Shown piece by piece: positions 1,186 to 45,076 of a stretch of DNA of 64,000 nucleotides (position 1 is the stretch's first letter; each line of letters starts with the position of its first letter). The stretch lies in assembly GCA_964372635.1 (NCBI GenBank), contig CAYJQW010000004.1, positions 840-64,839 of the forward strand, read 5' to 3'. The notes below the pieces were generated by a model. The model worked only from the letters and a program-made list of their open reading frames with translations, did no database searches and was not told where the DNA came from. A program made the translations under genes and the position numbers. This DNA is from an uncultured Candidatus Saccharibacteria bacterium. Its GTDB lineage: Bacteria; Patescibacteriota; Andersenbacteria; UBA10190.

Positions 1186-3138
1186 TTATCTTAAATTCAG
1201 GCGGCGCAGGATGACGAGGAGGGCAATTAAAATCGTCGCGACTGAAATCATTAAACCGGTACGATATCCTGGTGCTTTGTACTCAAAAACTAATTCACTT
1301 TGTCCGGCCGGCAGTGTCGCGGCGATGCGCCCACTGACATCAGTCGTCGGCTCACCATTAGCCAGCCAGCCGCGAGCGTAATTATTGTTTAAGATAATGT
1401 TTGTGTTATTTGAGAGGTTAGCTTTGACATTTATCTTATTTGGAGACCAGAAAAGCAGCTCAACTTTTGCGGCCGGGTTATCGGATGAAACAAAAGATTG
1501 GTTTTCCGGCTGCTGTTTGGTTACAACTGCTGGCGACGGACCAAGGACAGTGCAATAAGAAAGTGTGCCCCAGCCCTGCACGGTAAGCGGGTAGGCGCGC
1601 GTATAGTCAGCTCCCTCATAGCGAATTGTGTTTTTATCTAGTGTAAATTGCAGTGGCTTTTGGGCCGCCTGTATAGGCTCTTCCGGATACGGTAGAACGA
1701 AAGCTTGCTGCGATAACTGATAGGAAAGTGTCATTAAATCAATTGCCAGCAGCCCGAGGACGATACTGGCAATCAATTTGAGTCCAAAGGCTGAACGTCT
1801 TTTAAATATAGTCATCAACATATTATCGAGTCCCAGACCAGAGAGCAGTGCTATCGGCATAACTGCAAACAGAACAAGACGTGAAATGTTTGAGCGCGGT
1901 AAAAAGGCTACCTGATCAAAAAGCGGCTTTAGCACCGGCCCAGCTGAAGATATTAAAAGGGCAATAACCGAGCCAAGGACGAGCAGACGAACAAGACGAC
2001 TTGTTCTAAATTTATTTAGCGCAGCTATGGCAAGGACGAGCACAAGCGGGCCTACATAGGCGCCATATTCGTGCCAGCCACCACCTTGATTGAGAATCGT
2101 ATTATCACTGCCCGGGCCGTGTAGATAACGCCCTAGCAGAACCTTGTGTAGGGAAGTTAAGGTGCTGGTCGATGACGCGTAGACTTGGTCTTGAAATTGA
2201 CTGAGCCAATAAAGAACTGGCACTAATTTAATACTGGCCAATCCTAAGGCCCAAAAGCCCGACTTCAGACATATCATAAAAGCCCGACGGTGATTTTTGG
2301 CAACCGCAACCAAGAAAACAAATGCCCCGGCGGTATACATGAGCAGGTAAATTCCGCCTTGCAGAAAAGTCAGGGCAAGGAATAGTCCGCAGAGCAATGA
2401 CCAGCGGTTAAGACTCTTTGTTGAATCAAGATCACTCGTTGTTCGGTAGGCACTTACCCACGACCACAGAATCCACGGTATCCACATCGCCGATAAAATA
2501 TTTGTATGCCCTTCAACAATTTCCAGAATGTTGACACTGCTAAATGACACGGTCACAGCAGCAAGCATTGCACCGAAGACAGAGAGTCCCAGCCGTTTGC
2601 TTAAAATCAGAGTGCCAACTGCGCCAATGATCGTACTAAAATATATTGCTAGCCTCAGGCCAAGGGGTATGCCGAACAATAGTTCTAAAATAAAGGTTGG
2701 TGTAAAAAGTGGAAATTCAGGGTCACCGATGGCTGAAGTGCCGCCGCAGATATACGGATTCCATTGGGGAATACCGTCATAAGTTAAAGTCAGATTTCGG
2801 ACAATATAGTGATACGAAAAATAATAGTCCCAATCGGATATACCAAGTTGACCAGATGAAAACCAGAATCCTCCCATAGCAAGAGGGGTTATTATGACCA
2901 GCAGAATACTGGCTGCAATCCATCGAAATTTGTTTAGTCGGCTGATACCTAAAACACCACCGAAAAAAATCAAGCCTGTCAAAATGCCTTGCCTGATGCC
3001 AAAGCCTGTTAAACTAGCTTCGAATAAACTGTCAAATAATGAAGTTGTTGTTGGTCTGCTATTAGCGAGCCACCATAAAAAACCGATTAACAAGATAACT
3101 ATTCCGCTACCAAGTAATTTTATAAATCGAGATGCCAC
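1186..3138 (-). CDS. large polytopic membrane protein with GT-C-like architecture (YfhO/ArnT-like), function unassigned
   Basis: 650-aa ORF. About 14 predicted TM helices fill the first ~480 aa. The C-terminal ~170 aa are hydrophilic and beta-rich (likely extracytoplasmic). A loop motif GGTSAIGDPEFP resembles the GSGGDPWQ motif in the 28290..30404 protein. Confidence 0.5.
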   Translation of the reverse strand: MASRFIKLLGSGIVILLIGFLWWLANSRPTTTSLFDSLFEASLTGFGIRQGILTGLIFFGGVLGISRLNKFRWIAASILLVIITPLAMGGFWFSSGQLGISDWDYYFSYHYIVRNLTLTYDGIPQWNPYICGGTSAIGDPEFPLFTPTFILELLFGIPLGLRLAIYFSTIIGAVGTLILSKRLGLSVFGAMLAAVTVSFSSVNILEIVEGHTNILSAMWIPWILWSWVSAYRTTSDLDSTKSLNRWSLLCGLFLALTFLQGGIYLLMYTAGAFVFLVAVAKNHRRAFMICLKSGFWALGLASIKLVPVLYWLSQFQDQVYASSTSTLTSLHKVLLGRYLHGPGSDNTILNQGGGWHEYGAYVGPLVLVLAIAALNKFRTSRLVRLLVLGSVIALLISSAGPVLKPLFDQVAFLPRSNISRLVLFAVMPIALLSGLGLDNMLMTIFKRRSAFGLKLIASIVLGLLAIDLMTLSYQLSQQAFVLPYPEEPIQAAQKPLQFTLDKNTIRYEGADYTRAYPLTVQGWGTLSYCTVLGPSPAVVTKQQPENQSFVSSDNPAAKVELLFWSPNKINVKANLSNNTNIILNNNYARGWLANGEPTTDVSGRIAATLPAGQSELVFEYKAPGYRTGLMISVATILIALLVILRRLNLR

Positions 3139-5096: not shown

Positions 5097-6722
5097 GTGG
5101 CGTCATACAATAATGACATGACAACTATCAGCGGATGGCGTGTACTTATGTTAAAACTAAGAAGTTGGCCGGCTGTTGGACAAGAAAGTTCAATAAGGAG
5201 TTTCACAGAACGATTCTTACGAATTCTTATTTGGGTTTTGCCGTGGCTCGTGATAGCTGTTTTCACCTACATTTACATCTGGCTTGGTTTTTACAATGAA
5301 TTGCACTTAAGAAACGGTGTCGATCTCGGGACTTATAATCAGCTTCTCTATAATTTGTCATCAGGCCATAGCTTTCCACCGTTTAACAGTCTTAAAAATC
5401 AGATCGCCTGGGGTGATCATGCTCACTTCATTGTTATCTTGTTGACCCCGGTGTATTACCTTTTTCCAAGCTATCTGACTGTCATTGCTCTCCAGGTGTT
5501 AGCTATTACTACATCGGCTTGGGCATTATATAGCATTGCCCAGAAAACGATCAGGAACTATATATTTTCATATGTTATTCTATTCTCCTATCTTTTATTT
5601 TTTGGTGTTCAGTACGCTTTAAATTTTGATTTTCATCCCAATGTCTTAACAGCTGCTATTTTAGCTTGGAGTTTATATGCTCTTCATTTCAGAAAATGGC
5701 TGCTTTATTGGTTAGTATTCATATTAGGACTCCTAACGCGTGAAGATGCCGCAACCTTCTATGTCATGATCGGAGTTTATCTAGTGTTATTCCGACCAAG
5801 TATACCATTTGCTAAACGATGGACAGGAATAACTTGGGATAGTGTTAAAACTGTGGGGCTTGTGACCATTATCTTGGCGGGAGCATACTTCATTGGGGTG
5901 GTGTATTATCTTATGCCTCTCTGGCAACCAGATAATACAGCGCTGGCCTATTTTGATATTCCTGATAGCGCGCGTACGCCATTAGCCATCCTTTATTGGA
6001 TTGCAGGTAATCCAATTACGGTTATCCAAAACATGTTTGACACTTCCGCCAAAGTCAGCACGATCAGAAACCTGTTTCAATCATTTGGTTTTATACCCTT
6101 AATCACTCCGTTTACCTATTTAACAATCTTGCCAAACTTCCTCGCTCGATTTTTAAGTGGCGAAGAGCAGCGGCACATGACGCAGTTTCACTATGGAGCC
6201 AGCCTTGTGTCCCTACTGTCTTACGGTTCAATTCTAACAACTGTATTATTACAAAGGTCAGTCAAACATCTCTGGCAAAAAGTTATGAGGCAACAGCCGG
6301 TCTGGTCCTCTTTTATTATATCTACAGCAGTAGCAGCCTTGATATTTTTTGGTACATACACCGTGTCATTGCGTGATATTGATCTGCCTATTCACAGGCT
6401 TTATGATCGGGATTTTATTGAGCTTAAGTCTTTACCGCGCCCGGCTCGCGCCGCACTTGATGTTATGCGCCGGATCATTCCCGAAGAGGCTAGTGTGTCG
6501 GCGGCCAGCGGCTTAGTGCCAGCTCTATCTTCGCGGGAAAAAATATATAATTTTCCAGATGGACTGGAAACTTCTGTCGATTGGATCGTTTTGAGTGATG
6601 AGGGGAATACCTGGCCCTATCACAATGCTGAAATGAAAACGGCCATTAAAGAATTGCGTTTAAATTCCGACTATATTTTATCTTTTGATAACTACGGCAT
6701 TGTGGCCTTTAAGAAGAGATAA
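5097..6722 (+). CDS. DUF2079-like polytopic membrane protein (putative GT-C-type transferase)
   Basis: 541 aa with at least 10 TM helices. The N-terminal loop GVDLGTYNQLLYNLSSG resembles the DUF2079 signature DLG.F.Q..WN. The C-terminal ~120 aa are soluble. The GTG at 5097 may not be the true start; the first ATG is at 5118. Confidence 0.45.
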   Translation: MASYNNDMTTISGWRVLMLKLRSWPAVGQESSIRSFTERFLRILIWVLPWLVIAVFTYIYIWLGFYNELHLRNGVDLGTYNQLLYNLSSGHSFPPFNSLKNQIAWGDHAHFIVILLTPVYYLFPSYLTVIALQVLAITTSAWALYSIAQKTIRNYIFSYVILFSYLLFFGVQYALNFDFHPNVLTAAILAWSLYALHFRKWLLYWLVFILGLLTREDAATFYVMIGVYLVLFRPSIPFAKRWTGITWDSVKTVGLVTIILAGAYFIGVVYYLMPLWQPDNTALAYFDIPDSARTPLAILYWIAGNPITVIQNMFDTSAKVSTIRNLFQSFGFIPLITPFTYLTILPNFLARFLSGEEQRHMTQFHYGASLVSLLSYGSILTTVLLQRSVKHLWQKVMRQQPVWSSFIISTAVAALIFFGTYTVSLRDIDLPIHRLYDRDFIELKSLPRPARAALDVMRRIIPEEASVSAASGLVPALSSREKIYNFPDGLETSVDWIVLSDEGNTWPYHNAEMKTAIKELRLNSDYILSFDNYGIVAFKKR

Positions 6723-9600
6723 TTATTTTTCGGTAAAGCCATCGCCAAGGCAGTACTAGCAAGAGACATATTATTAGTGCGCTTACGGTTAAAAACTTGG
6801 CTTGAGTGATTGCTGATGATTCGTAACGGAATGAAACCACGTGTTTTCCGGAAGGCACTAGAGCAGCTTTAAAGATACTGAGGTCGGTAAAATATGGTGC
6901 TGGTTGGTCATCAATATAAGTAACCCACTGGGGGGTTGTAGCATCGGTCACGATGAGCCAGGCTACGTCGTCGGTCTCAACATCAACATCAACTTGTGTA
7001 TTTGAATAGAATGTAATCCTAGCTGTTCCTTGAGCTGGTTTTCCCTCAAGGCGCTCAACAACATCTGGCAGTCTTGTTCCTCCAATTAAGGCGATTTGGC
7101 TAGGGTCAAACTGGTCATCTTGTAATGCCGCTAAAACATGGTCAGGAGCCGGTTTGAACTTAAAATCACGCTGTAAAAAAGCCTTTGGATACGCTGCAGG
7201 ATTTTTGTAAAAACGGAATATTCGTTGATCTGATGCATATTCACCTATCGGTACGAAACCCGCATCTGGCATAAGATCCTCAATTCCCGGCGAAATTACC
7301 TGAGCCAGATGCGTCACCCCGGCGATATTAAATAATTGCCGCCGGCTTTCAAGAACGTGTTTAGAATCACCATCGTAAGGCTCACGATCATTAGCAAAAA
7401 AAGTTTCAATGAAATCTCGATAGGTGCGTATGGCTAAGGCACTAATCCAGCGAGCACTGCTGGCTTCGGCCGTGGCTTGCAAATGTCTCTCCAGCAGTAT
7501 CACATCGGCGTCAATGTCGGTCTTTTCTTGAGTAGGCAGGACAGTTACTCGTAACTCTTTTTGAGATCGGACTAATTCCACTGGACTAGGCTGATCAACT
7601 CTGACAATGTAAGCAGATAATTGACCAGGAATCTTGGTCAGAGCTAACGAGATAGCTGTCTTTTGACTACTGGTGAAAGATAAAACGTATTGTCCGTCGT
7701 CATCAATTGGCTCGCCGCTATCAAAACACAATGATAGCTTCTGGTCCACTAAGATATCTGAGGCTGTAATATTATGTGAGTCTATAGCTGGCTCAGATAT
7801 TGCCTTGTGCAACCCGACTGTAATGGCCTCGGACTTTGTGGAATCTGTTTCAGCTGGAATCGTAAAACAGGCGGGATTAGTCTTGATTTCAACTGGTTGA
7901 TAGATACTCAGATCCGGTGCAATAAATGGTGAGCGGGCAAATTCGAGACGAGGGATATCCGTTAGTAGCTCCGGACGACTGTATAACCGTGGTGGTAATT
8001 CTGATTCTTGGTTGGCCTGGCGGAGAAGTGACAAGAACGGAGAATCGAGTTGAACCGGTCGAGGTGTCAGAGGATTATAATTCCAACCAAGGTGTAGTAG
8101 GGTCACGGCGGTGACGAGCAAAACAACAACTTCGCCAAGCCTATAAAGACGGAAACTAATAAATATTATCAAGAACGGAATAACTAAGGCACCGACTATA
8201 GCCAGGAGCCAGCTTAAGTCAATAGACTGAATAATTCGTAACCATTGAATAGCGATCCGTGCATCCGTTTTGCTGAGAAAAAATGGCAAAAAAAGTAAAG
8301 CAGGCAAGGCCAAGCCTGTTAGAAAAATTCTTAACAGATGCCACCTTGACTTTCGCTTGTCACTGAAAAGATCACTTAGACCAAGACTGGCTAATAAGGC
8401 AATGCCAACATTAAAGAAAAAGACAAATCGTCCCGGATTGGCAACCGATGTTATAATTTTTTCTGCTACTAAATAGCGATAGATGGGCGAATTAACTCCA
8501 AGAGCAAACAGGATACCTATAACAACGAGAAATAAAGCCGCAATCCTCAGTGGTCTTCTAATTCGCCATGAGGCCAGGGCTGCCCCCGCCAAAAACAAAG
8601 GAAGAACGCCAACAAATGCGGCCAGCTCTTGAAAACCTTTAGCACCCCAGTAGTTATCATGATCACCAAAAAAGTAGGGCAGGACCAGCGTAATGGCGTG
8701 GCTGGGGGGGTAACTGAAATCAAACAGTTCTGATTCAGGCAGAACGTCGCTTCGTTCGGTAAACGGTAAAAATTCATACAGTGGCAAAACAGCAAAAGAC
8801 GCTGTTGCCAAAGCAATGAGCGCTGCTAATAAAACTAGAGACAAGACACGAAAGTTATATCCGTTTAAAATCCAATGGACAACAGTCGTCAATGTCTTGT
8901 TCTGCCTCAAGGCGGATTTTCCGCGATTGAAAGATTGGCCAATGAATGAAACTGAACCGATAATAGCCGCCAGCAATAGGTTGTAAAGTACTATCTGTGG
9001 TTGAGCTGATAAGGCCATCGTGGCTACCAGTAGACTCATGACAACGGCCCGGCGGATCGTGGGTCTCTCTAGAAAAATCTGAATGTTATAAAGGAGCCAC
9101 GGCAAAATCATTGTTGCGGTATAGAAGTTGACATGGTTTAAATGACCAATATTGAAACCAGAAAAAACGAATATAATAGCCCCCAAAGCGGCCGGCAGTT
9201 GTGGCAGCCTCCAGTGGCGCAAGAAAACAAACATGCCCAATAAGCCGAGCGCGAAGTAAGTCACTATAGAGATCTGCAAAACATCAAATGGAGCTATCTG
9301 TAAGGCACGAAGCACGACATGCACTGGTGTGAAAAAACCAAGTTGTCCCCAGGCAATAAGTGGTTGTCCAAATCCGAAATAATTACTCCAGACTGGCAGT
9401 TGAAGAGCCTGTTGACTTTGGGCATAAACTACTTCCAGGGGGTAGTAAATAGCCTTGAGGTCATCAAGCCAATAGGCTTGACTGCCGATTAAAACACGGC
9501 TAAAAAAAATAAACCATGTTAGTACTAGCATCATGAGGCCCCACCCATTGCCCGTTAAGTATGATTTTATTCTTGGCATTGTAATTCGCTGCCACCGCAT
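6709..9600 (-). CDS. YfhO-like large membrane protein (GT-C-like), function unassigned
   Basis: 963-aa ORF. The N-terminal ~500 aa are highly hydrophobic with many TM helices. A large hydrophilic central/C-terminal domain and a final C-terminal TM helix (ITQAKFLTVSALIICLLLVL) follow. This topology is typical of YfhO-family proteins. It overlaps the upstream pilin-like gene by ~30 bp. Confidence 0.45.
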   Translation of the reverse strand: MRWQRITMPRIKSYLTGNGWGLMMLVLTWFIFFSRVLIGSQAYWLDDLKAIYYPLEVVYAQSQQALQLPVWSNYFGFGQPLIAWGQLGFFTPVHVVLRALQIAPFDVLQISIVTYFALGLLGMFVFLRHWRLPQLPAALGAIIFVFSGFNIGHLNHVNFYTATMILPWLLYNIQIFLERPTIRRAVVMSLLVATMALSAQPQIVLYNLLLAAIIGSVSFIGQSFNRGKSALRQNKTLTTVVHWILNGYNFRVLSLVLLAALIALATASFAVLPLYEFLPFTERSDVLPESELFDFSYPPSHAITLVLPYFFGDHDNYWGAKGFQELAAFVGVLPLFLAGAALASWRIRRPLRIAALFLVVIGILFALGVNSPIYRYLVAEKIITSVANPGRFVFFFNVGIALLASLGLSDLFSDKRKSRWHLLRIFLTGLALPALLFLPFFLSKTDARIAIQWLRIIQSIDLSWLLAIVGALVIPFLIIFISFRLYRLGEVVVLLVTAVTLLHLGWNYNPLTPRPVQLDSPFLSLLRQANQESELPPRLYSRPELLTDIPRLEFARSPFIAPDLSIYQPVEIKTNPACFTIPAETDSTKSEAITVGLHKAISEPAIDSHNITASDILVDQKLSLCFDSGEPIDDDGQYVLSFTSSQKTAISLALTKIPGQLSAYIVRVDQPSPVELVRSQKELRVTVLPTQEKTDIDADVILLERHLQATAEASSARWISALAIRTYRDFIETFFANDREPYDGDSKHVLESRRQLFNIAGVTHLAQVISPGIEDLMPDAGFVPIGEYASDQRIFRFYKNPAAYPKAFLQRDFKFKPAPDHVLAALQDDQFDPSQIALIGGTRLPDVVERLEGKPAQGTARITFYSNTQVDVDVETDDVAWLIVTDATTPQWVTYIDDQPAPYFTDLSIFKAALVPSGKHVVSFRYESSAITQAKFLTVSALIICLLLVLPWRWLYRKIIISS

Positions 9601-10085
9601 ACTCGATACAAGACTCGTTCGCCGTCGTGTAAAATACGATAATAAAATTTTCTTTTCTCGTCCTCATCAAACATCCGTTCATCCGTATATTGCGCTTCTA
9701 GTTGCGCTTCCAGGTAATAACCAGAGACATTACCTGCGGTAACATCAGTTGCACAATAGACATAGGCGCGTCCTGATCTTTCACGGGTATCGTGAGGAAT
9801 AGCGTTTATATGCTGGCCCTTCAGCAGTGGCGAGTTGTTACCAAAAAGCCAGCTAGTTTGATCATCAGTGCTGGTACATATTTCACTTAAAGGCGGTGTC
9901 CCGTAGTTATCAAATTCATTGTTATATAATTCAAGGGCATGTTTTAAGTCTGTAATATCCTGACGGCGAAGATCATCGCGAACGGCAATTCTAGAGGAAA
10001 TAATACTGGGAATAAGAAATAAAAGAAGTAAGCCGAAGATCGTTGTCGCTGCCGCATACTCAAGCTGAATTCTTGTTAGATACAT
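9567..10085 (-). CDS. type IV pilin/pseudopilin-like protein with noncanonical prepilin signal
   Basis: ATG at 10085 with a stop 4 codons upstream. The N-terminal hydrophobic helix LEYAAATTIFGLLLLFLIPSII has a Glu at +5 relative to a possible cleavage after MYLT, but no Gly at -1. RDDLRRQDITDLKHALELYNNEFDNYGTPP follows, closely matching the DA.R..DL.QI..ALELYY.DNG.YP motif of CPR/Gram-positive-type pilins. Four Cys in the C-terminal part are consistent with a pilin disulfide domain. Confidence 0.5.
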   Translation of the reverse strand: MYLTRIQLEYAAATTIFGLLLLFLIPSIISSRIAVRDDLRRQDITDLKHALELYNNEFDNYGTPPLSEICTSTDDQTSWLFGNNSPLLKGQHINAIPHDTRERSGRAYVYCATDVTAGNVSGYYLEAQLEAQYTDERMFDEDEKRKFYYRILHDGERVLYRVCGGSELQCQE

Positions 10086-10557
10086 AACCCTAGATTACCA
10101 CGCGTGGTTTAGTAACGGCACGAATAAGTAGTCCTGCTACAATAAATAACCAGATAATAATTATTTGTTGGGCTCTCTTAGTTGCCGATGAATACACTAG
10201 AGTAATAGTTTGGCTGTGTTGATTAGGTATAACGAGATGAATTGAGCCATCGGCGGCCGGTAGAGCTAGGCCCTCTTGAGCTAGCCAAGATACAGTGTAA
10301 CGCTAATAAATAATAAAGGAGGATATTCCCAAATAAATGTCTGGCCGATACTCATCCCAGATGTCAAAATTAGATCCCTAGGCTGTTCGTGAGGTTCGTG
10401 GCGCTCCCCCCACTCAGGAAGCCTTGGAGAATTTAGCAACAGTATAGTCGATAAAAAGCTACCAAGTATAAATGTCCAGGATAGCAGATTCTGGTTGCGC
10501 GTTCGTCCAAAACGAGGTAGGGTCATGGGATGATTTTTATCATTATCTGCTCAACTC

Positions 10558-11652
10558 GTGAATACTAACGCTCAAATGAAAATCGGGACAGCTTCTAAAA
10601 TTTCTCGACCGGCTGATAATAAGATTTCCGGACAAGAGCGTGTTTTGGAGGCGCTGTCTCGGTTAAGTAAGGAAGTCAAAAAAATGCAAACGGAGTTTGG
10701 TTTGAGAGCGAAGCCAGCCATGAGCTCAATGATCAAAACGGAATGGGCTACTGTCAATGAGCCTGACTTATCAATTGAGACGATTTCACAGCCTGAAATT
10801 AATGCCTTATATGAGCTTCGGGCTGAATTATTAGATTGGGAATTAGAAACAGGATTTCTTGGTTTTTTTACGGATAATCCAGGTTATCGGTATGTGTTTA
10901 CGCGCCGACTGGAAATTCTTTTCGACATGCTCCCACTAAATATTAAAAATGCAGAAGTTCTTGAAATAGGCACAGCTGCCGGCATCGTGGCGAATTCCCT
11001 TGCCCCTTATGTTAGATTTTATACAGGGACTGACGTTACGCCGACTGCTCTAAAGTTTGCGGAAAACTTATCTCAGCGGCTCGGCTACTCCAATACAAAA
11101 TATAGGGTGGCTGATGGTCATTATCTCCCATTTACCAGCAATTCCTTCGATTTAATAATGTGTACTGAAACTTATGAGCATCTAGTTCGGCCAATCGAAG
11201 GCTTACGTGAAATGTGGCGAGTCTTAAAACCTGGTGGCACGGTCGCGTTTACTACACCGACAGCGCTAACACTTTCAGATTTGGCCATGAAGCTTATCCA
11301 GTTAATTAAGCGGGATATTCACGTTGAAGATACGGCTCAGTTTGATAAAAAAGCTTATTGGGCAGCCGAAAGGGAACATCGTAAGTTACCCCTGACTGCT
11401 TTTAAGCGGGTCCACTATCGCTTTGGATACGCCAAACTTGTACGTGATTTTACACAAGTTGGCTTTCAGGTTAAGAAATCCAAAGGAGCAGTATTTGGTT
11501 TGCCGCCGTATTACCTCGCGGCCTATCAACTATTACCAGGCTGGATATTGCCCGTGATTCGTCAATTTGAAGAACTTCTCAATGAGTGGGGTGTATTTGC
11601 GCGCTATGGTTCAGTGGCGACAGGATTTCAATTACTTAAACCAATAAAATAA
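10558..11652 (+). CDS. class I SAM-dependent methyltransferase
   Basis: Motif I VLEIGTAAGIVANSL and post-II motif VLKPGGTVAFTTP define a Rossmann-fold methyltransferase core at residues ~120-230. The track start at 10558 is GTG; the first ATG is at 10576. Confidence 0.75.
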   Translation: MNTNAQMKIGTASKISRPADNKISGQERVLEALSRLSKEVKKMQTEFGLRAKPAMSSMIKTEWATVNEPDLSIETISQPEINALYELRAELLDWELETGFLGFFTDNPGYRYVFTRRLEILFDMLPLNIKNAEVLEIGTAAGIVANSLAPYVRFYTGTDVTPTALKFAENLSQRLGYSNTKYRVADGHYLPFTSNSFDLIMCTETYEHLVRPIEGLREMWRVLKPGGTVAFTTPTALTLSDLAMKLIQLIKRDIHVEDTAQFDKKAYWAAEREHRKLPLTAFKRVHYRFGYAKLVRDFTQVGFQVKKSKGAVFGLPPYYLAAYQLLPGWILPVIRQFEELLNEWGVFARYGSVATGFQLLKPIK

Positions 11653-11752: not shown

Positions 11753-14173
11753 ATGCAAACTTTAGGGAACGCTTGGTGGAAATACATATTGCGTTGGGCA
11801 AAGCTGCCTTATTTTTGGCCAACTCTCATTTGTTTCGTTTTAGGTACGGCTTATTTTTTATCACCGGTCTATATGGAACGAGAAATACTGGCTCCTTACA
11901 ACGATGAAGCCCGCGTTGGTTTTGGCAGTACGAGGACGGTAGCCCAAGAATTTATTTCTCCCCATAAATTGCAAGCAATTGTAATTCCAATTGAGAGAGA
12001 ACCGAATATTGATGGACCACTTATACTGCACGTTCGTACGGAACTGAAAGGTCCAGATCTTATAACAAGCACCTTATTTTCTTTCACAGGTGGTCAGGCC
12101 AGATTTGACTTTAGTAAAATGTTGAATGGCGGGACTAAATATGTGTGGATTCTAGAAGCTCCAAACAATTTCGATAAAACGTCTTGGGTCTATTTGGAAC
12201 ATGATGAAACAGCCTATAATCATGGTAATTCGTACATTAAGGATACTCAATTAACTGGTAACTTTGGTTTTACTCTAATCCAAAGGAAATATCGTGGAGC
12301 ACACTTGTTTGAGCAATTATTGGCGGTAACACCATTCTGGGAATGGCGATCAGCCATTGTCGGCACAGTGGTGGCAAGTCTAGTCGCAACCTACTACAGC
12401 GCATTGAGAAAACCACACCATCGTGTTTCCTGGCTTCTCATATTGATATTAGCAACATTTGTCATTCATATTTTCTTGGCGCAGAGACTGCCAGCTGTTA
12501 CAGATGAGGGAGCATATCTTCAGGATGCCCAACAGGCGCAGCTGACATTCTTGCCCTTTCGAGATTATTTAACGAAAGGACCACTTTTTATTGGTCTACT
12601 GGCATCGTGGCAAAAATTATTTGGTTATGACTTGTTTACCGGTCGACTTCTTTCAGCTTTCATCTGGGCATTGGCTGTTTACTTAACGGCTATTTTTGGG
12701 CGCATCATTGATTTAAAAGGCTGGTATTATATCGCCGCCTTTGCGATGTCTGTACTTCCGGCAGCAGTTTCATTGACCACACCTATGCTCCTGCAAAGCA
12801 TGAGCACCGTTGTTGTGCTGGCTGGCCTCATTTTAGTCTTAAGAGGAGTCAAAGGTGATCATCTTGGCATGCTGATTTTTGGGGCATTATTACTTGCCGG
12901 TGGTTATCTTGTTCGAAGCAGCAGCCTTGTCCTTGTTATTACTGGGACAATCGCCATTATTTTGTATGGCCGACATCGCATAAAGGCCCTTATTACATAT
13001 CTTGCAACATATTTTCTATTACTCCTAATTATTTTTGCGATCAGTGTCAATGCAATTGGCATTGAACGAACCGCTATCATGTTTAATTTAGAAGCCTTTA
13101 TAATTTCTGGGCAAAGATCATCAACAGCCAGTGAGACTCGCGAACCAATCATTCGCCAGCTGACAAGTGACACTAGAACACTCTGGCGGAGCGCCCCGTG
13201 GTTTATGGCTGCGCTTGTGATGGTTCCCCCTATTATACTGCGGAAATTAGGTAAGAAGTTAAGAATAGTTGGACTAGTCGTGTGGCTTATTGTGCTCATC
13301 AATGTGTTCTTGCATCTGCGCGATATGCAATTCCTATTACCGAAATCCTTCCCTGTTACTACGGCGAGCATGGTAATTATTGTATTCGGGTTGCCAATAC
13401 TGTGGACATTATTTAGTTTTCAAGGGAAAAATCCCAATCGGCCTAAACCTGAAAAGACAATCCAGGTAAAATCATGGTTTACCAAACTGTCTTTTGACTT
13501 GAAGCTGGTCCAAAATTGGCGTGCCCTGCTTTTATTAGTTGCCTGGCTGGTCTTGCTGACAGGTCTATACTACTTTTGGCAGAATTTTCGTCAAAATTAT
13601 TTGATTGAATTTTTACCGCCACTTGCGTTACTCTCTGCTTGGGTCAGTGCTCAAGTAGCTGAAATATTTCAGTCTCTTACATTTCATAGGACCAAGAGGT
13701 TTATAACAGCTGGACTATGTGGTTTGCTAGCCATGTCAATCTATCAAGGTTATTGGCTGGCCGCTTCATATCCTCACACCGGTACCATTGATATAACTTC
13801 CCTCCAGGCTGTTTCCACTTTGGTAAGAAAACATGTCGAACCTGGTCAGGCTGTCTTTACCGCACAGCCACTTATAACTGCCGAGGCTTATCGTCCGATT
13901 GTTCTAGGTTACTCCCATCCAGGCTGGTATTTAAGTGAGCGGGTAGGTGAAGTATCATCATCGCTGCGGTCGATTTATTTTATGGAACCTCTTGCTCTCA
14001 CGTCATATCTCGAAACTACAGTCCAGTTTGTTTTGACTGATGATCGGACTCAAGAGGTATATTTTGATCAATACCCCGAACGTCAAGAAATCCTAAAGAA
14101 TAATTTTTTATTACTTGGCGAACTAAGTGATGGTCGTACGGAGGAACCGATGCGTTTATATAAAAAGATGTAA
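11753..14173 (+). CDS. GT-C-like polytopic membrane glycosyltransferase (paralog family A)
   Basis: ATG at 11753; 806 aa. It has an N-terminal soluble ~200 aa, then ~12 TM helices. The loop motif VTDEGAYLQDAQQAQLTFLPFRDYLTKGPLF and the C-terminal block FTAQPLITAEAYRPIVLGYSHPGWYLSERVG are shared with the 23525..25291 protein. Confidence 0.5.
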   Translation: MQTLGNAWWKYILRWAKLPYFWPTLICFVLGTAYFLSPVYMEREILAPYNDEARVGFGSTRTVAQEFISPHKLQAIVIPIEREPNIDGPLILHVRTELKGPDLITSTLFSFTGGQARFDFSKMLNGGTKYVWILEAPNNFDKTSWVYLEHDETAYNHGNSYIKDTQLTGNFGFTLIQRKYRGAHLFEQLLAVTPFWEWRSAIVGTVVASLVATYYSALRKPHHRVSWLLILILATFVIHIFLAQRLPAVTDEGAYLQDAQQAQLTFLPFRDYLTKGPLFIGLLASWQKLFGYDLFTGRLLSAFIWALAVYLTAIFGRIIDLKGWYYIAAFAMSVLPAAVSLTTPMLLQSMSTVVVLAGLILVLRGVKGDHLGMLIFGALLLAGGYLVRSSSLVLVITGTIAIILYGRHRIKALITYLATYFLLLLIIFAISVNAIGIERTAIMFNLEAFIISGQRSSTASETREPIIRQLTSDTRTLWRSAPWFMAALVMVPPIILRKLGKKLRIVGLVVWLIVLINVFLHLRDMQFLLPKSFPVTTASMVIIVFGLPILWTLFSFQGKNPNRPKPEKTIQVKSWFTKLSFDLKLVQNWRALLLLVAWLVLLTGLYYFWQNFRQNYLIEFLPPLALLSAWVSAQVAEIFQSLTFHRTKRFITAGLCGLLAMSIYQGYWLAASYPHTGTIDITSLQAVSTLVRKHVEPGQAVFTAQPLITAEAYRPIVLGYSHPGWYLSERVGEVSSSLRSIYFMEPLALTSYLETTVQFVLTDDRTQEVYFDQYPERQEILKNNFLLLGELSDGRTEEPMRLYKKM

Positions 14174-14176
14174 ATA

Positions 14177-15016
14177 TTATTCATTGCTGGACTTAATTTT
14201 GTGAGCTACTAGCCCCCATTCATAGCCACGTTTTAGCCGGAAAAAATGATCGAGCCGTGAGATTAGTCTTAAGAGAGGATAGACGATACGCAGATACCCC
14301 AGCAGCTGACGGTTTCCATTAACATCACCTTCAGAAGCTGGTGAAAGCGCTAAATTGTAACCCGCTGTTTTCTGTTGGCTACGATTTTTTAAAATATAAA
14401 ATCCGTTGTAAGCCAATTCAACCATCTCGGTAAAAAAGAAAGAAAATAGGTCAAAATCCTTTACTATTAGTCCGGCTGAGTCAGTTAATTTTTGTAGGGT
14501 GGACTTTGAAAATCCCTCAACAACGTGACCATGAGCAGCTTTATCAATACCGAATACATTTTCTGCAAAGTGTCTCCAGAAATATGGCCGACCATCATCA
14601 GCTGGTGTGGTTAAGATCACAACACCATCTGGGGTAAGTAATTCGGACACCCGACGCATAAAAGAGGCCGGATCTTGAACGTGCTCTATGACGTCGAAGA
14701 TGGTCACGATTTTAAAAGAACTCCGCGACAGTAAGGGATTATATATATCAATTTCATGGACCAAGCCATGAACAATCTTTCTCGTCTCGGCCGCCGCCGC
14801 GGCATCTGTTTCAGTAAATTCCCAAGTACCACCAAGACGCTCCAGAAGAACACTAAGCGTACCAACACCACTACCAATATCCAAACAAGGACAATCCTTA
14901 GCTTTCTTTTGTAGAGCTTGAAGCACCTTGGGTTTTGCCCACAACCATTTTTCTTTTTTCCTCACACTGACTGCAAAAACACGTAGCTGCCACGACTCAT
15001 TTTGTGCTGTTTTCAT
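14177..15016 (-). CDS. class I SAM-dependent methyltransferase
   Basis: Motif I CLDIGSGVGTLSVLL and LTPDGVVILTTP. Its start overlaps the stop of the upstream GT39-like gene by 4 bp (15013..15016). Confidence 0.75.
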   Translation of the reverse strand: MKTAQNESWQLRVFAVSVRKKEKWLWAKPKVLQALQKKAKDCPCLDIGSGVGTLSVLLERLGGTWEFTETDAAAAAETRKIVHGLVHEIDIYNPLLSRSSFKIVTIFDVIEHVQDPASFMRRVSELLTPDGVVILTTPADDGRPYFWRHFAENVFGIDKAAHGHVVEGFSKSTLQKLTDSAGLIVKDFDLFSFFFTEMVELAYNGFYILKNRSQQKTAGYNLALSPASEGDVNGNRQLLGYLRIVYPLLRLISRLDHFFRLKRGYEWGLVAHKIKSSNE

Positions 15017-16515
15017 AACTTATTGACTTTGAAGATCCAAACATAAGGTAGTCCGTTAATTTTAATAAGATGTTCCGGTTTTGGTTTTCCCGGGCCAAGA
15101 TAACTGGCCATCATTTCAGTTTCGGCAGCTCCAGGGCCGCGCTCAAACATGGAGCGGTACAAAATAATATAATCAGCCGAATTATTATCAGTATACGATA
15201 GTGAATCAGAAGGACCGGCATAGAAATAAGCAAAGACACGGTTATAGTAACTATGTACTTTAGCCTGTGGCGCTTGCTCAGAAATCCAAGCGGCGGCACT
15301 TTCTAAACCCTCGCCCCAGCCAAGCTTATGATCGGATTCTATTGGGTACAGTTTGTTATATTGAGCTAAATAATATGGATGGAGCCTAACATCATCAGCG
15401 GCTAACCACATTATTAATATCAGCGTAATCAGGTAGCCTACCATTCTCGACACATATAAACTATTGGCGAGCCAATGAATTATTATTCGCAAGCCGAATA
15501 CGCCTGTTAAAATAAATGTGAGTAGGGTGAGCAGTATATACCGGTCACTTTTATCGGAACTGAAGCTTAGAATGATCGCATAGACAATGCCGGCTAGTAA
15601 AAGCCAAAATACGGTTCGGCCCATTTTTTTATATCGTCGCAGACCCAAGCCAATAAGACCGAAAGGCACAAGAATGGTAGTGATCGGTGTAAGTCGGAAT
15701 AATCCATCACGGGCGTAATACCACCAGCGAGAAGTTGTCTCTAGGCTGCGTGTACCCTGGGCATGCAGAGTAAGTCTTTCTGAAACGTAGTTATACACGC
15801 TATCTGCTCCCAGCCAAAGGGCTGGCCATAAAATATACGTAGCTAAGATTATTATTGCGATCCAGAGCAGTATCATGTTGATGCCAGATCGCCAGGAAAA
15901 ACGAAGTTGTAAGAAAGTGACCGTGAGAATAACCAGAGCAGTAGGTATGAGTATAATGGCAAACATTTTTGTAAGCAGGCTCCCGGCGGCCAGGATAGCA
16001 CTGGCAGCCAGATAATGTTTATTCAAGGGTTCTTTGTGATGCAACGGTTCTAGGGCTGCCAATAAGGCAACTAGACTTGCCAGATAAAAAAGGGCAAGCA
16101 GGGCATCAGTATGCGCCAAGCGACTGTGAGCTATAAGAAAGGGGTCAAGAGCCAGGAAGAAACCGGCTGTCAAACCCCAGCGGCTGCCCCACAGCCTTGT
16201 TAGAAAATAAGTTATTATTAATATCAAAATACTGGTTGCGACAGCCACTGCTGCTTGATCTGCGGCTAAGGAGTGCCACCGATTACTTAATCCGATTAGC
16301 CAGGCTGTTGTCACGCCAGGCTGACCAGCCACGAGAGTTTTATCAAACTGGCCGGTTGAAAAAGCTTGCATAAAGCTGGCACCACGGTTTTGCCACAAGG
16401 GTTCATCGACAGTTAGAATTGATCCTAGTTGAAAGAGCCGAGGACTAAATACAGCCAAGAGAAATAGTGCTATGACGATCAGTCGATTAGACTGAGACGG
16501 ATTAGAGGCAGTCAT
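15013..16515 (-). CDS. ArnT/PMT-type (GT39/GT83-like) membrane glycosyltransferase, polyprenyl-phosphate-sugar dependent (paralog family B)
   Basis: 500 aa, 11-13 TM helices. The first extracytoplasmic loop after TM1 carries the DE motif typical of ArnT/PMT-family GT-C enzymes (LGSILTVDEPLWQNRGASFMQAF). It is paralogous to 21967..23463. The stop overlaps the upstream GT2 start (16512..16515). Confidence 0.6.
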   Translation of the reverse strand: MTASNPSQSNRLIVIALFLLAVFSPRLFQLGSILTVDEPLWQNRGASFMQAFSTGQFDKTLVAGQPGVTTAWLIGLSNRWHSLAADQAAVAVATSILILIITYFLTRLWGSRWGLTAGFFLALDPFLIAHSRLAHTDALLALFYLASLVALLAALEPLHHKEPLNKHYLAASAILAAGSLLTKMFAIILIPTALVILTVTFLQLRFSWRSGINMILLWIAIIILATYILWPALWLGADSVYNYVSERLTLHAQGTRSLETTSRWWYYARDGLFRLTPITTILVPFGLIGLGLRRYKKMGRTVFWLLLAGIVYAIILSFSSDKSDRYILLTLLTFILTGVFGLRIIIHWLANSLYVSRMVGYLITLILIMWLAADDVRLHPYYLAQYNKLYPIESDHKLGWGEGLESAAAWISEQAPQAKVHSYYNRVFAYFYAGPSDSLSYTDNNSADYIILYRSMFERGPGAAETEMMASYLGPGKPKPEHLIKINGLPYVWIFKVNKL

Positions 16516-18205: not shown

Positions 18206-19840
18206 TTAAAGCCAACGCAATGTGTGAACAGGCACAATTTCAAGAACGCCAGTGTCCCAAACTCTTTCTTTTTTTACCTCTGTCTTCACAATCGTATTGT
18301 CGACTGTCAACCGGCGGACTATCTCAAGAATACGGGGATCATCAGGTGTCTCAATTAAATAGACAATCTTGTACTGGCGTAACAGGTCAATTAGATCTTC
18401 GGGGTCCGCAGCTGGATACGTATTTAAGTAAAAACCCAGCTGCTGATTGCCTAGCTCTGTACCGGACTCTATTGTTCCAAAATAAAGAGTTGCAACAGCT
18501 TGATCAGTCGTTAAAGCAACAGGTTTAGACTCATGTGCTAAAGAAACTATCGATCGATACAAAGCATAGCCACGATAATTCTCTTCCCACGCACGTCCGG
18601 TTGCTTGTCGCATAAGGGTCTGGCTTTCCGAGCTCACTATCCAAATCGCCGCAGTCAGCAATGTTACGGCTAAGGCCTTCGGCCAAATCCAACTTTTCGA
18701 TTGAATATATAATCGATATGTCCCGGACAGTAAAGCGCTAAAGCCCGCGGCTGCAGTAAAATAATATACTGCAGATAAGGGAGCGACGTAGCGACTATAT
18801 ACCCACCACCATGACAGTAGTAATGTGTATCCAGTACCAGCGATAATAATCGGTAAACCAGCTTTTCCGTTTCTTATGATTATCCAAGGCACTCCAAGGA
18901 TCGCCAAGATGCTGAGCCACCAAGTCGTTGATAATAATATTCGGTTTGCCGCACCTGATTGCGGATTTTGACTGATCTCAAAGTTGGGGATTGACCAAGC
19001 TTTGCTGAAACCGGCACCATTGAGCATTAGTAAACCATTGATCGGGATTTGTTTAATCTCACCAAAGCCTCCATCAGCGGAGATTGCATCTGCCACATAT
19101 GGCAAATTAGTGATTGAACCGTGAATTGCAAGATGCGCTGGTATCCAGGCAATGATTGCTGCTACTGGAATCACCGACGCTCTCAAAACTTGTCGCCATG
19201 AAAGCCTGATCCACAAAAGCGGCCATAAAAGGCTGGCCACAATTAATCCTTCGTAACGTGTGAATATGAGGCAAGTAGTTACAACACCAAGCCAGAACAA
19301 CTGACGTCGGGACGATTTCGGTTTCAAAATAACTATTGTGACACAGTACACTGTGAGTACCATGAAAAAAACGAAGGTACTATCAGCTAATGGCCGAATG
19401 GCATTCAGCATTAGTAGCGGATCAAAAAGTGACAAGCCTAGGAATAGAAGTAGAGCGGCTCGATAAATTTTTAAGCGCCTACCCAGTGCATAAAGCGTTC
19501 CAACGCTAATGGCCGAGGCAGTTAGACTTATTATTACGCTCATTGGTATATATTCAATTGGGAATAATCGCGAGATTAGTATTAGAATACCGTACATTGG
19601 CAAGCGTTTCTCATGAGGTGGATATGAAAGATAGCCCAAGTTTTTGGCAATATGTTGGAAATTAAAGGCATCGCCAGCAGGCATAATACGACGTTCGAAG
19701 GCTATCGGGGCACGTACCAGCAGGGCAAAGATAATCAATAAAATTATGATTATGCTATCAATTTGGTAGGCAGTCACAGATTTAGTGTAGTTTGGTGCAC
19801 CTAACACGTACAGACGATCATAACCAGTGATGGCCGCCAA
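18206..19840 (-). CDS. polytopic membrane protein, GT-C-like, function unassigned
   Basis: 544 aa with ~12 TM helices in the first 420 aa. The soluble C-terminal ~120 aa are likely extracytoplasmic. Confidence 0.45.
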   Translation of the reverse strand: MAAITGYDRLYVLGAPNYTKSVTAYQIDSIIIILLIIFALLVRAPIAFERRIMPAGDAFNFQHIAKNLGYLSYPPHEKRLPMYGILILISRLFPIEYIPMSVIISLTASAISVGTLYALGRRLKIYRAALLLFLGLSLFDPLLMLNAIRPLADSTFVFFMVLTVYCVTIVILKPKSSRRQLFWLGVVTTCLIFTRYEGLIVASLLWPLLWIRLSWRQVLRASVIPVAAIIAWIPAHLAIHGSITNLPYVADAISADGGFGEIKQIPINGLLMLNGAGFSKAWSIPNFEISQNPQSGAANRILLSTTWWLSILAILGVPWIIIRNGKAGLPIIIAGTGYTLLLSWWWVYSRYVAPLSAVYYFTAAAGFSALLSGTYRLYIQSKSWIWPKALAVTLLTAAIWIVSSESQTLMRQATGRAWEENYRGYALYRSIVSLAHESKPVALTTDQAVATLYFGTIESGTELGNQQLGFYLNTYPAADPEDLIDLLRQYKIVYLIETPDDPRILEIVRRLTVDNTIVKTEVKKERVWDTGVLEIVPVHTLRWL

Positions 19841-21188: not shown

Positions 21189-21926
21189 TTAAGCTCGACG
21201 CCCAACTCCTAAAATGTTTTTGGTAAAAATTGTCGTATCGGTGCGTCCGTACAATTTGAATATCAAGTACCATAACTTATTCAATAACGCCGCCGCTACT
21301 CGAGCTGTTACATTCAACAGGATGTTAGGCGTAACGTAAATATCGGTTCCATAAATTTTAACTTTGTCAAAATCGGCCATGAGTAGAGTTTGCTTCAAAC
21401 TATGCTGGTCGAAGCCAACCTCATGGGTGATATCAATATACCTACCATCATTACCCAGCAGAGGATTACCCATATTCGGCACTTTAACCAGAAAGACGCC
21501 GCCAGGTTTCAGGTTGGTTCTGATCAACTCAAGCATGTGCCACATAGTTGGCTTAACCTGATGTTCTAAGACGTCATTTAGAATGAATGCATCGACCGGG
21601 GCCGTGAGATTTTCCAGATAAGCAGTTATTTCTGACTTGAGTACAGGTAATTCTTTCCTCTGACAAAAAGCAATGACCTCACTACCCACGTCCACGCCAA
21701 GTATATTCTTATAGCCAGACCGCCTCAAAAAATAAAGAAAATGACCCAGACCGCTACCCAAATCGACAATGCGAGCATCTCGATTTGTTGGCAAATGCGG
21801 TAAATAATTCCGGCGAAAATAACGTTCCTGAATGCTAAACTCGGTATCCCCTTCACGAGCACCACCAAAATGCTGGGATAAGTATTTTGCATATGTCTGA
21901 CTTACATCCATCGGTGATTGTCGCAT
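21189..21926 (-). CDS. class I SAM-dependent methyltransferase
   Basis: Motif I IVDLGSGLGHFLYFL and LKPGGVFLVKVPN. Confidence 0.75.
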   Translation of the reverse strand: MRQSPMDVSQTYAKYLSQHFGGAREGDTEFSIQERYFRRNYLPHLPTNRDARIVDLGSGLGHFLYFLRRSGYKNILGVDVGSEVIAFCQRKELPVLKSEITAYLENLTAPVDAFILNDVLEHQVKPTMWHMLELIRTNLKPGGVFLVKVPNMGNPLLGNDGRYIDITHEVGFDQHSLKQTLLMADFDKVKIYGTDIYVTPNILLNVTARVAAALLNKLWYLIFKLYGRTDTTIFTKNILGVGRRA

Positions 21927-21966
21927 GAAGATTATTCTGACTGATTCATGCTACATTGTCGACATT

Positions 21967-45043: not shown

Positions 45044-45076
45044 AATCCGACTTTACAATAGAAGTCGGATTTTTTT
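45044..45076 (+). terminator. plus-strand intrinsic-terminator-like hairpin
   Basis: aatCCGACTTtacaatagAAGTCGGatttttttgcgc: a 7-bp stem with 8-nt loop and a 7-T run on the plus strand. Both flanking genes are on the minus strand, so it would terminate an unannotated plus-strand transcript from the 44733..45052 gap. Confidence 0.35.

Follow-up and report, generated by a model that had tools for sequence, protein, structure and literature searches.

The gene and its degenerate signal region

The subject of this analysis is a small pilin-like protein encoded in a 64,000-nucleotide stretch of DNA (here called the window) from an uncultured Candidatus Saccharibacteria bacterium placed by GTDB in the Andersenbacteria lineage (contig CAYJQW010000004.1). 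Its gene lies on the reverse strand at 9567-10085, begins with ATG, has its stop codon at 9567-9569 and specifies 172 residues, starting MYLTRIQLEYAAATTIFGLLLLFLIPSIISSRIAVRDDLRRQDITDLKHALELYNNEFDNYGTPP... and ending ...LYRVCGGSELQCQE; the window holds only this one member of the family. An earlier note on this DNA had described this open reading frame (ORF) at exactly this position, along with an N-terminus reading MYLT-RIQLE-Y, in which Gly is missing from position -1 of the class III signal but Glu is present at +5, and C-terminal cysteines. All of these features are present in the ORF.

Residues 1-9 (MYLTRIQLE; 10059-10085) make up the degenerate class III signal region, with Thr4 at -1, Arg5 at +1 and Glu9 (codon 10059-10061) at +5. 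They are followed by the hydrophobic first part of the pilin helix, α1-N (residues 10-31; 9993-10058), which the AlphaFold2 helix, column composition and pilin alignment together mark as a predicted membrane anchor, and in which Pro26 is the equivalent of pilin Pro22. The amphipathic α1-C (residues 32-58; 9912-9992) carries a pilin/GspG-type motif, R-x3-RDD-LRRQDI-x2-LK-x-ALE-x-Y-x-N, here in the form RDDLRRQDITDLKHALELYNNEFDNYGTPP, and the same motif is found in canonical pilins. The remainder (residues 59-172; 9570-9911) is, by AlphaFold2 secondary structure and conservation, a globular head comprising an αβ loop (C70...C111) and five β-strands. Alignment conservation picks out three elements of the head: an invariant, probably outer-face Thr113 (9747-9749), an acidic motif D140-E-D-E143 (9657-9668) and a C-terminal RVCGGxExQC (9576-9599) containing C163 and C170, which with C70 and C111 are the four cysteines of the protein.

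A word-indexed search retrieved 51 homologues (E-values down to 1e-58, 34-57% identity), exclusively from metagenome-assembled genomes of Patescibacteria, most of them labelled Candidatus Andersenbacteria and some bearing an automatic 'Saccharibacteria' label. No Pfam domain is found on any of the 51. In an alignment of 44 family sequences (A1) the residues R36, D37, K48, E52, N56, Y61, Y108, T113, A127, E130, D140, D142, R161, C163, G164 and G165 are invariant. The transmembrane stretch is variable across the family except for Glu9, which is near-invariant (Glu in 42 of 43 members). Charged or aromatic residues are invariant at many positions of the head, which also has a FDEDExRKF motif peculiar to the family and a C-terminal YRVCGGxExQC; its C-terminal third is unique to the family. 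Conserved Ser or Thr positions are T45, T71, S78, S85 and the invariant T113. Two size classes are seen: a long form, and a short form of 133-140 residues that is without residues ~63-106, T71, S78 and S85 included. T113 is retained in the short forms, as it is in the diverged variants of loci L020 and L022 (see below), and should point away from the helix in the predicted structure, judging by the alternation of residues along strand 109-116.

The composition of the signal region was assessed by counting positions backward from the conserved Glu across the 44 members. The -1 residue is Thr (22), Ser (6), Pro (4), Asn (3), Ala (3), Lys (2), Gln (2) or Leu (1) and never Gly, while the +1 residue is Arg in 26 members and never Phe. 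Only six to eight residues precede the Glu in 36 of the 44, the family consensus being M-T-R-A-Q-x-E-Y, and the would-be leader has just one to three residues, Met-Thr in the consensus. In 39 members the four residues ahead of the Glu include a Lys or Arg. By contrast, a set of canonical pilins has Gly at -1 in 35 of 38 cases, Phe at +1 in all 38 and 8-16 residues before the Glu. The more distant family members have longer and basic N-terminal tails, yet these too are without a G-F junction. An in-frame TAA four codons 5′ of the ATG means that no longer leader is hidden upstream of the window ORF and, with most homologues beginning at the same position, it rules out a wrongly assigned start codon.

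The degenerate signal noted from the window protein thus holds good family-wide, and these data support its being a conserved family trait rather than a start-codon artefact. Gly(-1) and Phe(+1) are lost family-wide, and the protein is probably no longer a substrate of prepilin peptidase. The earlier note had left a choice between an uncleaved pseudopilin and an unusual prepilin peptidase specificity. The Met-Thr leader, the lack of Gly(-1), the Arg at +1 and the absence of linked machinery fit the first much better than the second.

Cleavage of a different kind would be implied if the hydrophobic segment were an ordinary Sec signal peptide, with signal peptidase I cutting at the consensus A31-R32-A33 and releasing a soluble, secreted head. 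Ala is indeed the consensus residue at both 31 (30/44) and 33 (28/44), immediately after the hydrophobic stretch, and Pro26 lies a few residues earlier. However, the window protein itself reads S31-R32-I33, with a poor -1 residue, and the 'SAR..ARD' stretch to which these residues belong occurs also in canonical pilins, within an α1 helix that is not cut. Both the length of the hydrophobic segment, ~21 residues, and the conserved acidic residue before it are atypical of Sec signals, and AlphaFold2 predicts one continuous helix from residue 5 to 58. We consider release of the head in this way highly improbable.

Descent from type IV pilins

Direct scans do not place the protein among known pilins. 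It has no match to N_methyl at E ≤ 1 in Pfam or NCBIfam (canonical relatives score 31-40 bits) and none to PF08334, and the best direct-scan match, to GspG (TIGR01710), has an E-value of 0.023 and 14.7 bits against a cutoff of 88.85. A search of the PDB with the A1 profile matches Geobacter PilA-N at E = 1.3e-4, with the family Glu aligned to pilin Glu5 and the family Pro aligned to Pro22. The same profile, searched exhaustively against 1.8 billion cluster representatives, gave 3158 matches at E ≤ 1e-3. Ranks 1-40 are all without the class III motif; from rank 41 on come canonical 'KGFTLIELLVVIAIIG...ARDAKR..DL..ALELYY' pilins, of N_methyl plus T2SSG composition in Pfam, which align from profile position 7 to ~135. 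A profile of canonical Patescibacteria pilins (A2) matches the solved structures of GspG, PilA and PilE, head domains included. When A1 and A2 were compared directly with hhalign, they aligned over 131 columns with 99.8% probability (E = 2.4e-28). The alignment spans Glu5, α1, the αβ loop ('IPHD' on 'IP.DP'), 'Y.Y' and 'GYYLEAQLE' on 'Y.L.A.LE', and homology to pilin heads reaches through β2-3. The AlphaFold2 model obtained with A1 (predicted local distance difference test, pLDDT, 95.1) has a single helix at 5-58, a loop region and then five strands, which is the order of elements in pilins.

At the level of profile comparison, these results show the protein to be derived from type IV pilins/GspG and homologous to them over a stretch that starts at Glu5 and takes in most of the head domain; the PilA-N match, the exhaustive search and the hhalign result each bear out its earlier description as pilin-like. 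It shares with canonical Patescibacteria pilins and GspG pseudopilins (PF07963 + PF08334) the motif 'ARD..R..DL...ALE.Y.N...YP' and the helix-then-sheet architecture. The family differs from them in having no basic leader, Gly(-1) or Phe(+1), in its own C-terminal third and invariant Thr113, in its high conservation, and in sitting in operons of GT-C glycosyltransferases rather than in pilus loci. From the class III pilin pattern it keeps Glu at +5 followed by a hydrophobic α1-N of ~20 residues. With no Gly(-1), no hydrophobic residue at +1, no match to the hidden Markov models and no linkage to machinery, it is not a member of the class III signal or N_methyl group, and should properly be described as pilin-derived, rather than as a pilin or pseudopilin. 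This has a practical side: searches based on N_methyl or PilFind miss the family, and the label 'PulG pseudopilin' given to P0037 by the Joint Genome Institute wrongly implies a role in secretion or in a pilus.

The exhaustive search also returned a 755-residue protein (P0078) in which the family/T2SSG head module is matched six times in tandem behind a hydrophobic N-terminus that is not of class III, apparently a string of repeated pilin heads within a single polypeptide.

Linkage to glycosyltransferase genes

Genomic context was compared across 19 distinct loci, namely the window and 18 related loci. The gene directly downstream of the family gene is an orthologue of a YfhO-family GT-C enzyme in nine of these (the window, L001, L003, L005, L006, L015, L017, L018 and L024), with junctions of -34 to +60 nucleotides. 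Two sugar epimerase genes and then the YfhO orthologue lie downstream in L007/8, L011 and L013, while in L009 and L012 the family gene is followed by a PMT_2-type GT-C of ~740 residues and then by the YfhO orthologue, all frames overlapping. Loci L020 and L022 have a diverged short form of 136-140 residues ('...AKREY...YDAEEGHNFWYRY...ICGGGPSCD') together with a 670-residue PMT_2 GT-C immediately downstream, the two frames overlapping by four nucleotides (L020 9452-11883 and L022 10938-13360, both on the reverse strand) and the YfhO orthologue lying 2.6-4 kb away. This overlap with a PMT_2 enzyme gives the family at least two GT-C pairings. A YfhO-like gene is found 7.8 kb downstream in L014 and a diverged one ~1.9 kb downstream in L019; the 2.9-kb contig of L023 has a PMT_2 gene divergent to the family gene. 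Divergently upstream of the family gene, most loci carry an orthologue of an 806-residue GT-C of the window (see below).

Linkage to GT-C genes is therefore seen, in some form, in the window and in all 18 related loci, extending the GT-C flanking noted in the window to every related locus examined. At each of the 19, in some form, the family gene heads an operon that runs into a YfhO-family GT-C of ~950 residues or a PMT_2-type GT-C, and the frames often overlap or nearly abut. Pilus or secretion components appear in none of the related-locus tables, and Pfam and motif scans of the 64-kb window detected no PilB/C/D/M, no prepilin peptidase and no other class III motif. In the loci examined, these results show an obligate linkage of the family gene to GT-C genes and in no case a linkage to pilus machinery. 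On matched contigs the long-form pilin-like proteins are 46-55% identical to the window copy, compared with 40-44% for the YfhO orthologue and 31-35% for the 806-residue GT-C.

A second conserved pair is visible in these loci, in which a PMT_2-like GT-C of 610-750 residues ('X') lies directly upstream of, and overlaps, the YfhO orthologue (L009 8474-10717, L012 8414-10615, L020 4169-6004, L021 3858-5996 and L022 3923-6004).

These contexts bear on the possibility that the protein is after all a filament subunit. It could be a minor pilin or pseudopilin of pilus machinery elsewhere in the genome, either uncleaved, with a role for example in priming or anchoring, or cleaved by a peptidase of unusual specificity; alternatively, it might assemble unaided, Arg(+1) standing in for the N-terminal amine that otherwise pairs with Glu(+5). 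The near-universal Glu(+5), the Lys or Arg so often found shortly before it, the putative C-terminal disulfide loop and the apparent retention of the full pilin architecture all favour such a role. Type IV pili are described as well conserved in Patescibacteria, and a part in pilus priming has been proposed for the Saccharibacteria pilins PilX1/X2, in which no PilD signal is predicted. Against this stand the Thr, Ser, Pro or Asn at -1 and the would-be leader of one to three residues, leader removal having been reported as essential for assembly (PMC8546353), as well as the constant presence of GT-C operons, and never of pilus genes, at the 19 loci. The family is also conserved far above the level reported for Patescibacteria pilins, which are poorly conserved, with only 10-25% coverage between phyla. 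A place in a filament seems to us improbable.

Within the window, the pilin-like gene lies, as the earlier note had it, between a YfhO-like GT-C gene and a methyltransferase/GT-C block; the former is downstream on the same strand, and the latter, with a methyltransferase gene and the 806-residue GT-C gene, is divergently upstream. The YfhO-like gene, on the reverse strand at 6709-9600, lies downstream of the family gene in every YfhO-linked locus. It has a longest ORF of 963 residues, and the NCBI call is of 941 residues from 9534. Its product has ~13 transmembrane helices, a β-rich extracytoplasmic C-terminal domain and a last transmembrane helix. The window protein itself has no Pfam match at E ≤ 1; PF09586 is present in ~90% of its full-length orthologues (40-48% identity), some of which bear the name 'YfhO family protein'. 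An AlphaFold2 model (pLDDT 91.5, predicted template modelling score 0.91) finds in Foldseek AftD (E = 2e-8), EmbA/B, PglB, AglB, STT3 and Pmt4, with matches resembling carbohydrate-binding modules (CBMs) for the C-terminal domain. The sequence 'FLDDLK', in the first extracytoplasmic loop, provides the conserved DD motif, D47 being invariant and D46 near-invariant.

The junction between the two genes (9534-9600, reverse strand) is a 34-nucleotide overlap if the YfhO-like protein starts at 9600, and a 32-nucleotide spacer if it starts at 9534. The latter start has a Shine-Dalgarno-like stretch, GGGTGGGG, five nucleotides upstream. The first 12 codons of the long ORF (MRWQRITMPRIK; 9567-9600) overlap, in another frame, the codons for CGGxExQC of the pilin-like protein, and their conservation in tblastn is explained by this overlap and hence is no evidence for the earlier start. 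With the NCBI start 22 codons later, the overlap is weakened as proof of translational coupling. Terminator-like sites are above shuffled expectation, with none inside the junction, and a promoter scan found promoter-like sites to be no more frequent than shuffled expectation.

The 806-residue GT-C-like membrane protein (11753-14173, forward strand) is divergent to the pilin-like gene and has a weak Pfam match to PMT_2 (E = 0.0086); tblastn finds its orthologues at 31-35% identity over ~790 residues in L001, L005 and L007-L014. Between them lies a gene for an S-adenosylmethionine (SAM)-dependent methyltransferase (10558-11652, forward strand; Methyltransf_11, E = 1e-20), whose position is particular to the window and not seen in the related loci. 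The 470-bp gap at 10086-10557 contains two broken ORFs on the reverse strand, 10281-10526 (81 residues) and 10090-10302 (70 residues, hydrophobic). Neither has homologues in related loci, and both were set aside; they may be the remnant of a decayed gene or simply non-coding.

More widely, the whole 64-kb window has the character of an envelope-glycan island. It has a G+C content of 43%, no tRNA or Rfam matches and at least seven GT-C-like membrane proteins: besides those at 6709-9600 and 11753-14173, they are encoded at 5097-6722 (DUF2079), 15013-16515, 18206-19840, 21925-23463 and 23525-25291. Other enzymes include five small GT2s, approximately nine GT4s, two GT9s and six SAM methyltransferases. 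A TagF-like gene lies at 40016-41236, MurJ at 45053-46627 and a Wzx-like gene at 47458-48924, and a polysaccharide deacetylase, AsnB and SpoIID are also encoded. At 60849-63503 (forward strand) an 884-residue protein unusually fuses an N-terminal, flippase-like Wzx/Polysacc_synt_3 region to a C-terminal GT4. A 650-residue protein (1186-3138, reverse strand) without a Pfam match is 42% identical to the product of a 781-residue gene lying between two YfhO-like genes in L003, and probably belongs to a further, uncharacterised family of glycosyltransferase-like membrane proteins in these loci.

A probable acceptor or partner of the neighbouring enzymes

Taken together, the evidence makes it very probable that the protein is an uncleaved, membrane-anchored, GT-C-associated derivative of a pilin. 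Leader removal is reported to be needed for pilus assembly, with unprocessed prepilins staying anchored in the membrane (PMC8546353), so that the simplest reading is of a permanent anchor with its N-terminus inside the cell and its head outside. The protein would insert as a prepilin does and remain in the membrane, its unprocessed α1-N serving as the anchor and its head, stabilised by disulfides, being carried on a helical stalk of ~4-5 nm. The four conserved cysteines would fit such an extracytoplasmic head.

Regarding function, the protein would most likely be a dedicated acceptor, or an anchor, for the adjoining GT-C enzymes. These may be fed with polyprenyl-phosphate sugars by the small GT2 enzymes of the locus and would then attach and extend a glycan, the PMT_2-type enzyme perhaps acting as primer and the YfhO-like enzyme, with its CBM-like domains, as extender; it is the AftD/Emb-like, CBM-bearing architecture of the latter that suggests extension. 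The best single candidate for the glycan site would be Thr113, family-specific, invariant and predicted to lie on the outer face, with T71, S78 and S85 of the αβ loop as further candidates in the long-form members.

That the protein should be a glycan acceptor specifically, as the earlier note proposed for the glycan of this locus, is plausible and reasonable by analogy, with pilA-tfpW and streptococcal PgtC2 as precedents, although we put it at somewhat short of an even chance. Several considerations lead towards it. In a conserved cassette with two to four GT-Cs, the protein alone is not an enzyme, and its partners come from two separate GT-C families. The genes are ordered as in pilA-tfpW; protein O-glycosyltransferase activity is proven for YfhO-family enzymes, whose substrates can be encoded in the same cluster; and an unprocessed prepilin can still be glycosylated.

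The closest parallel in gene order comes from Pseudomonas aeruginosa, where in pilA-tfpW (group IV) and pilA-tfpO (group I) a pilin-type gene is directly upstream of that for a large polytopic glycosyltransferase, which combines a DDx motif with a large C-terminal domain outside the cytoplasm. TfpW, the GT-C encoded directly downstream of pilA, glycosylates PilA. The window likewise has its pilin-type gene directly upstream of, and co-oriented with, that of a polytopic GT-C. PilA, however, is a cleaved and polymerised major pilin whose glycosylation has been shown, and TfpW contains tetratricopeptide repeats. In the window pair the pilin-like protein has no cleavage site and is a putative rather than an established glycoprotein, pilus genes are not linked, and the enzyme is of the YfhO family with CBM-like β-domains. 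Among streptococcal enzymes of the YfhO family, PgtC2, and PgfM1/PgfM2 with Cnm/WapA, O-glycosylate extracytoplasmic parts of membrane-associated proteins from undecaprenyl-phosphate-linked sugars, and the pgf cluster encodes enzymes and substrates together. The acceptors of these enzymes are disordered, Ser/Thr-rich regions, whereas the pilin-like protein of the window is modelled as folded throughout, with no such region.

For the uncleaved state there is a parallel in the ΔpilD mutant of Synechocystis, in which unprocessed prepilin is still glycosylated and membrane-anchored but unable to assemble (PMC8546353). There it is the toxic state of a mutant; in the window family it appears to be an evolved and conserved condition. 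A further likeness is to the glycosylation of teichoic acids by YfhO (GtlB) in Bacillus subtilis and Listeria, which uses a GT2, GtcA and YfhO, in that the window has small GT2s, a YfhO-family GT-C and a TagF-like gene. A role of the YfhO family in the glycosylation of lipoteichoic acid has been noted in the literature. The acceptor in GtlB systems is a polymer, not a protein, and to our knowledge they have no pilin-like component. On balance the protein works most like the pilin of a pilin and dedicated glycosyltransferase pair, or like a membrane protein kept permanently in a 'prepilin state'. Pfam and NCBIfam have no model for the family, and a literature search found no paper on it or on a pilin-fold partner of a GT-C; nor did it find anything on cyanobacterial hps loci combining pseudopilins and glycosyltransferases. 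A paper on the 'Pam' pilus of the candidate phyla radiation proved unrelated, the pilins there being immunoglobulin-like and of donor-strand type.

A number of observations weigh against the reading we prefer. Foldseek with the pilin-like model finds no similar solved pilin (best E = 0.33). The Ser/Thr-rich disordered segment of the type modified by PgtC2/Pgf is absent, all residues having pLDDT of ~89 or above; Ser or Thr occurs in the C-terminal tail of 31 of the 44 members, but not in that of the window protein; and the short form keeps its GT-C linkage despite losing the Ser/Thr-bearing αβ loop. The converse linkage is incomplete, since the YfhO orthologue of L021 has no family member within 6 kb. 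The abutting or overlapping frames suggest equal expression of 'substrate' and enzyme. Finally, with its conservation above that of the neighbouring enzymes and its charged and aromatic invariants, the protein resembles a binding partner more than it does a simple acceptor.

It is on this last ground that an accessory or scaffold subunit has to be considered, that is, a bitopic GT-C partner whose head would bind the YfhO-like or PMT_2-like enzyme at its extracytoplasmic domain, or else bind their glycan or wall polymer, and which could position the acceptor or set chain length, as Wzz does with Wzy. Such a role fits the unusually high conservation about equally well and is nearly as likely as that of acceptor; we regard it as a possible, lesser candidate. 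The invariants of the protein are mainly charged and aromatic residues on faces of the helix and sheet, together with the DEDE motif, and the overlap or abutment with the downstream GT-C frame, the linkage retained by short forms without the Ser/Thr loop and the want of a disordered acceptor region all accord with it. AftD and EmbA/EmbB, the closest structural relatives of the YfhO-like enzyme, were moreover solved with a small partner, the Emb entry being EmbA-EmbB-AcpM2. AftD is an arabinofuranosyltransferase and EmbA/EmbB are arabinosyltransferases, whose substrates are glycans rather than proteins, and the TagF-like gene makes a teichoic-acid-like polymer plausible as an alternative acceptor in the window. 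On the other hand, a shared acceptor would account for pairing with both YfhO-like and PMT_2-like families more easily than a specific subunit would; Glu9 aside, conservation in the transmembrane segment is poor; the YfhO orthologue of L021 would have to manage without a nearby partner; and we know of no pilin-fold subunit of any GT-C.

The acceptor and anchor roles might also be combined. It is widely reported that Patescibacteria cannot synthesise membrane lipids of their own. An uncleavable pilin could have been recruited as the protein membrane anchor of a surface glycopolymer, primed on Thr113 and extended by the GT-Cs, giving a functional counterpart of lipoteichoic acid or lipoglycan that is anchored by protein. 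In a variant of this idea, Arg(+1)-Glu(+5) contacts would permit glycosylated fibres independent of the peptidase. We think either form unlikely.

The uncleaved, GT-C-associated pilin derivative would clearly exemplify reuse of the type IV pilin scaffold outside a filament system, with the cleavage site deleted and the gene wired into GT-C operons. If it is indeed an acceptor, protein O-glycosylation of the YfhO or PMT_2 type extends to folded pilin domains in Patescibacteria; if it is an accessory protein, GT-C enzymes would have their first example of a pilin-fold subunit. What the loci present is a clean, conserved three-gene module, with a function that we infer, in a poorly understood group. 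With one small protein and two or three enzymes, it offers a concrete and testable entry into the almost unexplored glycobiology of the Patescibacteria cell surface.

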